A DNA stretch of 18,872 nucleotides from a virus. Lineage: Duplodnaviria > Heunggongvirae > Uroviricota > Caudoviricetes. The notes under the pieces are model-generated. The model saw only the letters and a program-made list of their open reading frames with translations. It did not search any database and was not told the origin of the DNA. The stretch lies in IMG/VR virus record IMGVR_UViG_2663763227_000001, positions 1-18,872 of that record. One strand, written 5' to 3'. Made by a program: the position numbers and the translations under genes. This document shows, one piece after another, positions 1,488 to 15,688 of this stretch; within the stretch, counting starts at the first letter, position 1, and each line of letters opens with the position of its first letter.

Positions 1488-1547
1488 TGCGCAGAACTGA
1501 TGAGCGATCCGAATAGCTCAATGTACGAGGAAGAAGACGATGAGTGA
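1488..1547 (+). pseudogene. ninF: Displaced 3' remnant of ninF (encodes CAELMSDPNSSMYEEEDDE-stop)
   Basis: Directly after the HNH stop (1484-1486) a short frame reads CAELMSDPNSSMYEEEDDE then TGA. This is the expected continuation of the NinF C-terminus following the zinc ribbon, as recalled for lambda NinF. It has no start codon of its own. Confidence 0.4.
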
Positions 1548-1719
1548 TGTTAAAGAAAAAGATATCCCCGGCTTTGAGGGTATATATAAAGTAACTGAAA
1601 ATGGAGACATCATTTCATGCCGTAAATCAAAAAAATTATCTCATGGCATTAAACCAGGAGGATATGCATTTGTCGGTCTGTATCCAGGTGGCGGGAAAAG
1701 GGAGGGGATTGATGTTTAG
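1540..1719 (+). pseudogene. NUMOD4-like N-terminal domain only (59 aa); probable truncated remnant of a second homing endonuclease
   Basis: MSDVKEKDIPGFEGIYKVTENGDIISCRKSKKLSHGIKPGGYAFVGLYPGGGKREGIDV parallels the N-terminus of the 14449 HNH gene ([12 protein letters not shown]...GGYLFVGL) but stops before any catalytic motif. AT-rich. ATG overlaps the ninF-remnant stop. Confidence 0.35.
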
Positions 1720-2486: not shown

Positions 2487-3100
2487 TGCGGTTAACTCCA
2501 GTATACAGCATGGTTAACTTCATTAATGACGCGCACTTTCGCCGCGTATGGAGACATCCGAAGAAAACCATCAACTCTAGCCAGAAAGCATGGGTTCATT
2601 ACATGTTACAGGTATGGGGCAAGGTTAACGCCGGAGATTGCTCTCCTGGTGGTGCAATTAACGTTATCGGTCGCCTGATGATTCGCAGTCAGTGGAGCGA
2701 TGACAAGGCTAAGCAGATAGAGTCTGTCGTCATGCGCCTGTACGAAGAAGATGGGCTGCGCGGAGATGAGCTATACAAGAAAGCTCGCGAACTGGTCATT
2801 CCTCAATCATCGTTTAGCCACATCATCACTCTCGCCAAAGAATCAGATGATGCGGCTTTCGTTGAACGTGTGATGGTCAAGACTTTTCACCGTGAAAGCC
2901 CCGTCCGCGATGTAGCTATTAAGCGATATTGCAATCGCAATTGCACGCAAGATATAGCCAGGATGATTTCTTATATAACAGGTGCTGATATTCAGTATTG
3001 TCGTAAGCGAGTGGTGTGGTGTGAGAAAGTGCTGGAGTCAGAAATGTTTTATGCAATGAAACGAGAATTGGAGAAAGAATTTCCATTAATAGCGGCCTGA
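2486..3100 (+). CDS. Putative late-gene antiterminator Q (not the lambda Q type)
   Basis: Positional call: last gene of the nin block, directly upstream of the late leader and lysis cassette. SD GGGAGG 4 nt upstream of ATG 2486. Cys cluster CNRNC...C-x6-C near the C-terminus; N-terminal region loosely resembles 82/933W-type Q proteins. No similarity to lambda Q as remembered. The ORF-track start at 2456 is a TTG extension. Confidence 0.55.
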   Translation: MRLTPVYSMVNFINDAHFRRVWRHPKKTINSSQKAWVHYMLQVWGKVNAGDCSPGGAINVIGRLMIRSQWSDDKAKQIESVVMRLYEEDGLRGDELYKKARELVIPQSSFSHIITLAKESDDAAFVERVMVKTFHRESPVRDVAIKRYCNRNCTQDIARMISYITGADIQYCRKRVVWCEKVLESEMFYAMKRELEKEFPLIAA

Positions 3101-13008: not shown

Positions 13009-14427
13009 ATGCCGATTCAGCAACTTCCGCTTATGAAAGGTGTCGGCAAAGACTTTCGAAACGCCGACTATATCGACTATCTGCCAGTGAATATGCTGGC
13101 TACGCCCAAAGAAATACTCAACAGCAGCGGATATCTTCGCTCATTCCCGGGCATTGCCAAACGTTCTGATGTGAACGGCGTATCGCGGGGCGTCGAGTAC
13201 AACATGGCGCAGAATGCTGTTTATCGCGTGTGTGGTGGCAAGCTCTACAAAGGCGAAAGCGAAGTAGGTGACGTCGCCGGAAGTGGTCGCGTATCAATGG
13301 CGCATGGTCGAACATCTCAGGCTGTAGGAGTTAATGGTCAACTGGTCGAGTATCGCTATGATGGCACGGTTAAAACCGTCTCAAACTGGCCTACAGATCG
13401 CGGATTCACGCAGTATGAGTTAGGTTCGGTTCGCGACATTACACGCTTACGTGGCCGTTATGCGTGGTCAAAAGACGGAACTGATTCATGGTTCATCACT
13501 GACCTTGAAGACGAATCGCATCCTGACCGTTACAGCGCACAATATCGCGCAGAATCGCAGCCGGACGGCATCATCGGCATCGGAACATGGCGAGACTTCA
13601 TCGTCTGCTTTGGTTCATCGACGATTGAATATTTTTCCCTGACTGGGGCAACCACCGTTGGTGCCGCTTTGTATGTCGCACAGCCATCACTGATGGTGCA
13701 GAAAGGCATTGCCGGAACTTACTGCAAAACGCCGTTTGCTGATTCCTATGCTTTCATCAGCAATCCGGCAACAGGTGCGCCGTCTGTATACATCATCGGA
13801 TCCGGTCAGGTGTCACCAATCGCCAGCGCGAGCATTGAGAAAATCCTCCGCTCCTACACTGCTGATGAACTGGCTGATGGCGTGATGGAATCGTTGCGCT
13901 TTGATGCTCATGAGTTGCTGATTATCCACCTTCCGCGCCACGTCCTAGTATATGACGCATCTTCAAGCGCCAATGGTCCGCAATGGTGTGTGTTGAAAAC
14001 TGGCTTGTATGACGATGTGTACCGCGCTATCGACTTCATTTACGAAGGCAATCAGATAACGTGCGGCGATAAGCTGGAATCCGTGACCGGGAAATTGCAG
14101 TTCGACATCAGCAGCCAGTATGGGCTGCAGCAAGAACATATTTTATTTTCACCATTAATAAAGGCAGATAATGTCATTATTAATGACCTTGAATTAGAAA
14201 CATCAGGCGGCGTGTGTGATAGAATAGATAAAATATTTATATCAGCAACAACAGATGGAATAAATTACGGCAGGGAACAAATGGTCGTATTGCAATCTCC
14301 ATTTGTATATGACAATCGAGTCTTATGGCGCAGGATTGGAAGAGTTAGACGTCTCATCGGTTTTAAATTCAGAGTTATTGCAAAAGGCCCGGTTACATTA
14401 TCCGGACTGTCTATTCGTACAACATAA
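13009..14427 (+). CDS. Tail accessory / hub protein (P22 gp10-like); 3' ~300 nt compositionally AT-rich
   Basis: 472 aa, the same length as P22 gp10, in the correct position after the gp4-like gene. GC content drops sharply from about 14130 to the stop, continuous with the AT-rich HNH gene downstream. Confidence 0.9.
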   Translation: MPIQQLPLMKGVGKDFRNADYIDYLPVNMLATPKEILNSSGYLRSFPGIAKRSDVNGVSRGVEYNMAQNAVYRVCGGKLYKGESEVGDVAGSGRVSMAHGRTSQAVGVNGQLVEYRYDGTVKTVSNWPTDRGFTQYELGSVRDITRLRGRYAWSKDGTDSWFITDLEDESHPDRYSAQYRAESQPDGIIGIGTWRDFIVCFGSSTIEYFSLTGATTVGAALYVAQPSLMVQKGIAGTYCKTPFADSYAFISNPATGAPSVYIIGSGQVSPIASASIEKILRSYTADELADGVMESLRFDAHELLIIHLPRHVLVYDASSSANGPQWCVLKTGLYDDVYRAIDFIYEGNQITCGDKLESVTGKLQFDISSQYGLQQEHILFSPLIKADNVIINDLELETSGGVCDRIDKIFISATTDGINYGREQMVVLQSPFVYDNRVLWRRIGRVRRLIGFKFRVIAKGPVTLSGLSIRTT

Positions 14428-14448: not shown

Positions 14449-14994
14449 ATGTTAAGTGAAGATATTAGAGATGTAGTTGGTTATGAGGGGCTTTATGCGG
14501 TAACTCGTGATGGTAGAGTTTACTCTCACTCAAGGATAATAAATACATGCCATGGGGCTACTCGATTAATGAAGGGTAGATGGCTGAAGCCAGCAAAGGA
14601 TGGGGGCGGATATCTATTTGTTGGTCTCTGTAAGGATGGAGAGGTTAAACCAAAAAAAATACATCGAATTGTTGCTGAGGCATTTATTGAAAACAAAGAA
14701 TCTAAACCATTCATCAACCATATAGATAATAATAATCAAAATAATAATGTAGAAAATCTTGAATGGTGTACGCAACATGAAAACATGCAGCATTGCTCTA
14801 GAAGCGGTAGGGTGAAAATACCTCATTATGTGGGTTCTGAACATCCATCGTCCAAATTAAATGAAGATATAGTTCTGGTCATAAAAAATGATTTGATTAC
14901 GCCAATTAGCGAGTTAGCTGCAAGATATAATGTGACTGTTCAGGCCATACACGCCATTAAAAAAGGGAAGACATGGAGGCATGTGAATGGCTGA
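14449..14994 (+). CDS. HNH homing endonuclease (NUMOD4 N-terminal domain, HNH motif, C-terminal HTH)
   Basis: N-terminus [21 protein letters not shown]...GGYLFVGL (NUMOD4-like); [41 protein letters not shown] (HNH); C-terminal HTH-like segment. AT-rich. Excellent SD AAGGAG. Inserted between the gp10-like and gp26-like genes; its stop overlaps the gp26 start. Confidence 0.85.
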
Positions 14995-15688
14995 TCCCAA
15001 TCTCAACGTGCCAGTAACTATCCAGGCCACCCGGCTAGACACATCAATCCTGCCGCGAAATATCTTCTCGCAGTCGTACCTGCTGTACGTTATCGCTCAG
15101 GGTACCGATGCCAGTAACGTGGCTAACAAGGCAAATCAGGCTGGTCAGGGCGCTTACGATGCTCAGGTGAAAAACGATGAACAGGACGTCGAACTGGCAG
15201 ATCACGATTCAAGAATCACCGCAAACACAAAAGCGATAAATCTCCTTGAGGTCAGGTTAACAACCGCCGAAGGGAAGATAGTCGTACTGCGTAGCGATGT
15301 TGATTACTTGCTGGATGAGGTTATCGATATTCAGGCGCATCTGGTCACTGTTGACAAAAGACTGGATGGCGTAGAAAGCGATGTATCTGACATTAAGAGT
15401 GATTACGTATCGAAAACCGTAACAGAATCGCAGTCTCTTGCGTCACCGCTGGATGTAAAAACATCATATTCAGTTGATGGAATTCAGGTTGTTGGAGCAA
15501 GAAATACCGGATGGACTGCAGCCACAGGTACGCCACTTCTTGGCTCATTCAACGCTAACCAGTCATACACTGTCGGCACTACGTACACACAATCCGAAGT
15601 CGCAGCTCTCGCTACAGGTTTGCAGCAGGCGCGGCAGCGTATTCTGGCGCTTGAAACAGCACTTAGATTACATGGGCTGATTGACTGA
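14987..15688 (+). CDS. Tail needle / plug protein (P22 gp26-like)
   Basis: 233 aa, the same length as P22 gp26; [41 protein letters not shown]...[18 protein letters not shown]... matches P22 gp26 closely from memory, with coiled-coil heptads. Confidence 0.9.

Follow-up and report, generated by a model that had tools for sequence, protein, structure and literature searches.

A NUMOD4-only open reading frame in a phage nin region is very probably the dead relic of an I-HmuI-type HNH endonuclease gene left by one in-frame deletion

A described relative of the gene considered here is I-HmuI [PDB 1U3E], a nicking homing endonuclease of the HNH class that is encoded in an intron of Bacillus phage SPO1 and in which D74, H75 and N96 are the catalytic residues (PMC12724721). 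Truncated HNH remnants are common in the lactococcal Skunavirus phages, where they account for 56 of 268 genes, and partly deleted I-HmuI-like remnants are found there in early gene regions, at sites where insertions recur (PMC12724721). In phage T4, the group I intron gene I-TevIII is a dead and truncated HNH gene; its direct neighbour in the operon is mobE, a free-standing HNH gene that is intact and lacks a promoter, and co-conversion of the defunct I-TevIII by mobE has been demonstrated (PMC2790892).

A locus with similarities to each of these systems is present in the 18,872 nt of DNA analysed here (the window), which comes from a virus of the Caudoviricetes [IMG/VR record IMGVR_UViG_2663763227_000001]. 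All features described are on the plus strand. An open reading frame (ORF) at 1540-1719 and the intact gene from which it is derived both align to I-HmuI, but the gene is free-standing rather than intron-encoded and the short ORF has no catalytic domain. As in T4, a truncated HNH gene lies beside an intact one, though trans-mobilisation is experimentally established in T4 and is conjecture here. The likeness to the Skunavirus remnants extends across a different phage group and host, and in this case the exact parent gene and the exact deletion could be identified. Ordinary decay of endonuclease genes is already known, and the 59 aa protein itself is catalogued in RefSeq as a 'NUMOD4 domain-containing protein' [WP_057695716.1].

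The product predicted from 1540-1719 is 59 aa long, MSDVKEKDIPGFEGIYKVTENGDIISCRKSKKLSHGIKPGGYAFVGLYPGGGKREGIDV, and the GC content of the ORF is 38.9% versus 48.9% for the whole window. The Pfam NUMOD4 profile (PF07463) matches it over profile positions 4-49 of 49 with 31.7 bits (E=1.8e-7), which places it in this family, membership being defined by a score above the curated gathering cut-off of 23.4 bits. PHROG 59, 'HNH endonuclease', also matches (E=1.4e-9), and residues 6-52 align with chain residues 3-49 of I-HmuI (1U3E; E=1.4e-7), an alignment that identifies an N-terminal β-sheet DNA-binding domain homologous to that of I-HmuI. A single-sequence AF2 model of the protein has three strands, with a pLDDT of 57 that marks it as low in confidence. 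The 59 aa contain no HNH motif and the Pfam search returned no HNH_3 match. A first-pass annotation of this DNA had described an AT-rich ORF of 59 codons that carries the N-terminal domain of NUMOD4-HNH endonucleases and ends before any HNH motif, and it is borne out on each of these points.

In a nucleotide search of phage genomes, positions 1487-1760 matched Escherichia phages Dewey and Louie, two P22-like Lederbergvirus phages (PMC12243541), at 100% identity but in two pieces, which span 604 bp in those phages and 274 bp in the window. Dewey and Louie carry a 510 bp gene annotated 'HNH endonuclease' between an intact ninF and the gene for a 91 aa protein that also follows the ORF in the window. 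The Dewey product (CDS0060) is a NUMOD4 motif-containing HNH endonuclease of 169 aa [GenPept XPK40831.1] at the same locus, with the same first 54 and last 5 residues as the window ORF, and a full-length 169 aa NUMOD4-HNH gene was also found at this site in 33 of 5426 complete Escherichia coli genomes. Hence the earlier suggestion that the ORF is the truncated remnant of a homing-endonuclease-type gene, together with its proposal that related phages be searched for a full-length endonuclease at this position, had a positive outcome. The NUMOD4 match is significant and the 59 aa form is a single identical allele rather than a diverged family of small proteins, either of which results, had it been otherwise, the annotation had named as counting against its reading.

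Alignment and an exact comparison of prefix and suffix define the lesion, as the window ORF is the 510 bp Dewey gene minus nucleotides 162-491. The retained 5′ segment (1540-1700) corresponds to parent nucleotides 1-161, i.e. codons 1-53 and two bases of codon 54, and is 100% identical to the Dewey locus (L001:2554-2714). The retained 3′ segment (1701-1719) is the last 19 nt of the parent, and the whole 180 bp is nucleotide-identical to the corresponding parts of the Dewey gene. The junction (1700-1701) lacks 330 bp of the parent, equal to 110 codons, so that the frame is preserved and parent residues 1-54 are fused to the last five, EGIDV, with the loss of residues 55-164, which include the HNH motif and, except for EGIDV, the C-terminal helical DNA-binding part. 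The junction is blunt, since the common prefix (161) and common suffix (19) add up to exactly the length of the ORF (180). A deletion mediated by microhomology or repeats was considered and rejected on the same arithmetic, and in the parent gene neither endpoint is flanked by repeats.

The parent protein aligns with I-HmuI over residues 3-116, across the catalytic motif (1U3E; E=8.9e-19). The deleted stretch holds the His of the parent motif VNHKDGN, which aligns with I-HmuI H75, as well as a downstream Asn and the C-terminal part. The parent has counterparts of D74, H75 and N96 and the window ORF has none, as all three aligned positions are inside the deleted part. The remnant could not, for this reason, act as an HNH nuclease, and judging from its sequence it is very probably catalytically dead. 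The ORF can thus be derived from intact homologues at the same locus (the Dewey, Louie and E. coli alleles) by one defined lesion that removes essential parts. The description of the gene as 'decayed' is apt in that it is the relic of an endonuclease, but it arose by one in-frame deletion and not by gradual erosion.

The 19 nt retained at the 3′ end comprise precisely the GGAGG ribosome-binding site (1701-1705), spacer and ATG (1712-1714) of the 91 aa gene, and the relic's own TAG (1717-1719) overlaps that start. Since this ribosome-binding site and ATG were kept, expression of the next gene would be undisturbed by the deletion. At the other end, the relic ATG (1540-1542) overlaps the end of a ninF 3′ fragment, the TGA of which is at 1545-1547. 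The 91 aa gene (1712-1987) matches PHROG 131 'HNH endonuclease' (E=1.5e-30), is probably translationally coupled to the relic, and is followed by rusA (1984-2346). For its previous label, DUF1364, the match to YbcO/DUF1364 is below threshold (18.9 versus 29.9 bits), and a match to DUF968 is likewise below threshold. The placement of the ORF between a ninF remnant and this gene, with overlapping starts and stops, was correctly recognised.

The deletion allele is rare. The same deletion was found in one of the 5426 complete E. coli genomes, that of strain AH19B041, where it is annotated as WP_057695716.1, and otherwise comes from metagenome and draft contigs. In a large protein collection, the exact 59 aa protein is on 42 contigs, while at least 1000 carry the parent protein in identical form and a further 488 and 64 carry close variants of it, so that intact copies outnumber the relic by a factor of at least about 25. 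A single origin is indicated as well. The 180 bp are nucleotide-identical in 11 of the 11 deletion loci read, which sit in at least four gene contexts that include ninF split or intact and three different Q genes. Flanks differ by ∼1.4% between contexts and the 180 bp carry no substitutions, so the 11 loci offer no variation on which selection on the relic could be tested. Identity across mosaic contexts is the pattern of a single event later shuffled, and it points to one deletion, the product of which would have been spread among mosaic phages by recombination.

Other inactivated forms of the parent gene were also detected, and they stop at different places. In E. coli EA7 (L004 1554-2063), a single substitution, G285A, converts W95 to a stop and ends the reading frame after residue 94, an independent inactivation. 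Three members of the 90% protein cluster (P0003, P0005 and P0006), from Shigella dysenteriae and E. coli, run into unrelated sequence after residues ∼47 or ∼75, and one S. dysenteriae form of this kind is on 32 contigs. The sequence that these three run into resembles IS3-family ends and may reflect insertion of an IS. A gene-less allele was found in RM8082 and two other strains, in which a NinF-family gene runs straight into a homologue of the 91 aa gene. The NinF-family gene upstream in RM8082 differs from the usual one.

Several features suggest that the parent gene may be a mobile cassette. A 10 nt direct repeat, GAGTGATGTT / GATTGATGTT, bounds it at 2556-2565 and 3051-3060 of the Dewey locus (1542-1551 and 1707-1716 in the window), and owing to this repeat an identical 8 nt stop/start overlap is formed at the cassette's own start and at that of the following gene. 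Its low GC content, the terminal repeats and its presence or absence at the site, with a gene-less allele known though with a different gene upstream, point the same way. Its location also favours mobility, being mostly after ninF but after roi/KilAC in strain QML220601. Against mobility, the exact empty site predicted from the repeat (GATGAGTGATGTTTAGAAGCAA) had no match in viral contigs or genome contigs and no one-piece match in E. coli genomes, and of 37 complete E. coli genomes with the 91 aa gene, 34 have the NUMOD4-HNH gene, intact or deleted, in front of it. The two genes apparently travel as a pair, also where they are placed after roi and not ninF. Homology to I-HmuI is the basis on which the parent is regarded as a putative homing enzyme.

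A further endonuclease gene interrupts ninF immediately upstream. The ninF 5′ part (838-948; Pfam NinF, E=6e-12) continues as an ORF into an AT-rich insert of 539 bp (949-1487; 35.4% GC, junctions placed by alignment) and stops at 1017. The boundaries of the insert lie between '...GAGCGTTGT' and 'TGCGCAGAACTG...'. The ninF 3′ fragment (1488-1547) is identical to the 3′ end of ninF in phage Dewey and can be read as a 24 aa ORF from an in-frame ATG at 1474 that the insert supplies. Split ninF and the supplied ATG together have a 'gene in pieces' layout. The insert carries an intact HNH_3 endonuclease gene of 168 aa (980-1486; Pfam HNH_3, E=1.2e-19), which ends 54 bp upstream of the relic; more than 1000 contigs encode exactly this protein. 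The first-pass annotation was right that an intact and a truncated endonuclease gene lie within 800 bp, and its proposal of repeated invasion and decay at the locus gains support from the different intact HNH gene that splits ninF and from the independent inactivated alleles described above. A literature search for HNH insertion in ninF found nothing specific. Between 800 and 2400, no sigma-70-like promoter was matched on either strand of this 1.6 kb, where 4.6 matches would be expected from shuffled sequence, and genes there would accordingly depend on transcription from upstream, in keeping with a compact series of overlapping genes that has no promoter within it. A scan of the window for tRNA genes found none.

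Taken together, it is highly likely that the ORF is what is left, without catalytic activity, of a free-standing NUMOD4-HNH gene of the I-HmuI type and that it persists since its deletion is non-polar and harmless. In P22-like and lambdoid E. coli phages the intact gene is found in the nin region, directly upstream of the 91 aa HNH-like gene and usually right after ninF, and one blunt 330 bp in-frame deletion took the HNH motif and C-terminal part and left NUMOD4 with the last five residues. The deletion was probably harmless to the operon, since it spared the relic's own start and frame as well as the ribosome-binding site and overlapping ATG of the 91 aa gene. The relic would then be a neutral passenger, moved between phage mosaics by ordinary recombination, and it may also ride on gene conversion driven by the intact HNH gene upstream. 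None of the results contradicts an origin by deletion; loss of activity and neutrality are what we infer from them. Against pure neutrality it can be said that the frame was kept, for which the odds are 1 in 3, that the cut is at a domain boundary, that the deletion ends exactly where the downstream ribosome-binding site begins, and that the 180 bp carry no substitutions across contexts with differing flanks. Each of these points is weak, and survival of non-polar deletions alone, with an allele of recent origin, would account for every one of them too.

The same observations could be read as signs that the NUMOD4-only protein is maintained as a functional DNA-binding product, either a shield of target sites against full-length relatives in co-infecting phages or a small regulator. 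Besides the conserved frame, the complete NUMOD4 profile and the preserved start, ribosome-binding site and coupling to the next gene, the spread of a substitution-free allele over at least four mosaic contexts and 42 contigs would fit this, and the equivalent domain of I-HmuI-like enzymes fits the DNA major groove (PMC12724721). However, a single nucleotide-identical allele gives no sign of purifying selection over time, the allele is far less common than its intact counterpart, the other inactivated alleles terminate at other positions, the structure model is of low confidence, and the C-terminal part, thought to give target specificity, is lost. A maintained function is for these reasons quite improbable, and its more specific form, in which the protein is expressed and kept as useful by target masking or as a dominant-negative inhibitor, with its spread possibly aided by the HNH gene in ninF, is very improbable. 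It is barely credible that the short ORF stems from an error of assembly or sequencing, or that it belongs to a +1 frameshift product with the 91 aa gene. An assembly artefact is excluded, as a finished chromosome shares the junction with metagenome and draft contigs that were assembled independently. The frame of the 91 aa gene (frame 2, +1 relative to the relic) is open over 1601-1987, from 111 nt upstream of its own ATG, and at the deletion junction (1693-1701) a Lys codon is followed by a rare Arg codon (AAA-AGG), which might suit frameshifting. Yet the 91 aa gene has its own ribosome-binding site and ATG and is separate in every relative, including the gene-less allele, no fused homologue was seen, and the deletion explains the open frame more simply, so that the fusion was rejected. 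The open frame and the AAA-AGG junction are thus probably a coincidence.

A different question is how the allele is maintained, and here it has been considered whether the relic spreads or persists by co-conversion with the intact HNH_3 gene in ninF, i.e. by trans-homing of a defunct neighbour. This concerns maintenance alone and is compatible with the preferred reading of a dead relic. Among the 10 places of the relic listed, six have the split ninF and HNH_3 gene beside it (L005, L007, L009, L010, L011 and L013) and four do not, and T4 mobE and I-TevIII provide a precedent (PMC2790892). In one near-isogenic, window-like locus (L014), the relic is present and ninF is intact without the insert; relic and insert are thus separable, and the insert was gained or lost where the relic was present. 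Conversely, the relic is also found with an intact ninF, and the association may be mere linkage in one lineage. About 45 complete E. coli genomes have a split ninF, followed by various genes (roi/KilAC, ninG and others), but in these the resemblance to the window does not reach beyond ninF, suggesting short conversion tracts or separate histories. A split ninF is absent from all 33 genomes that carry NUMOD4-HNH in full length, which is expected by chance at a split-ninF frequency of ∼3%. Co-conversion by the neighbouring HNH gene is a plausible route for which linkage is the support, and on balance it is unlikely.

Annotators should record the ORF as what a truncation has left of a NUMOD4-HNH endonuclease gene, without the HNH part, and not as a kind of protein in its own right, a change that matters little otherwise. 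The locus is also a natural example of the life cycle of a selfish endonuclease. At one site its gene is known in intact and deleted form, with a nonsense mutation and, as it seems, disrupted by an IS, and the neighbouring gene that splits ninF encodes another endonuclease, which is intact. Dewey and Louie are cultivable relatives and could provide a simple system in temperate E. coli phages for homing, co-conversion and competition between neighbouring endonucleases.

The window contains another gene with the architecture of the relic's parent. An intact paralogue with NUMOD4 and HNH_3 domains in Pfam (14449-14994; 181 aa, 37.7% GC) lies among virion genes, between genes for products of 472 aa (13009-14427) and 233 aa (14987-15688), overlapping the start of the latter. 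Its product is 38% identical to the Dewey parent protein over the full length (E=5e-21). The relic had been said to parallel its first 60 residues closely; the parallel is real (E=4e-8) but moderate, with 38% identity over residues 7-51 and 13 gap positions. In four of the loci that carry the relic (L005, L007, L010 and L014), a further NUMOD4 and HNH_3 gene of 200 aa is located between ninB and the Dam methylase gene, at locus coordinates of about 997-1599 or 1536-2138. The window begins too late to cover this position, which would make a fourth endonuclease site in the nin region.
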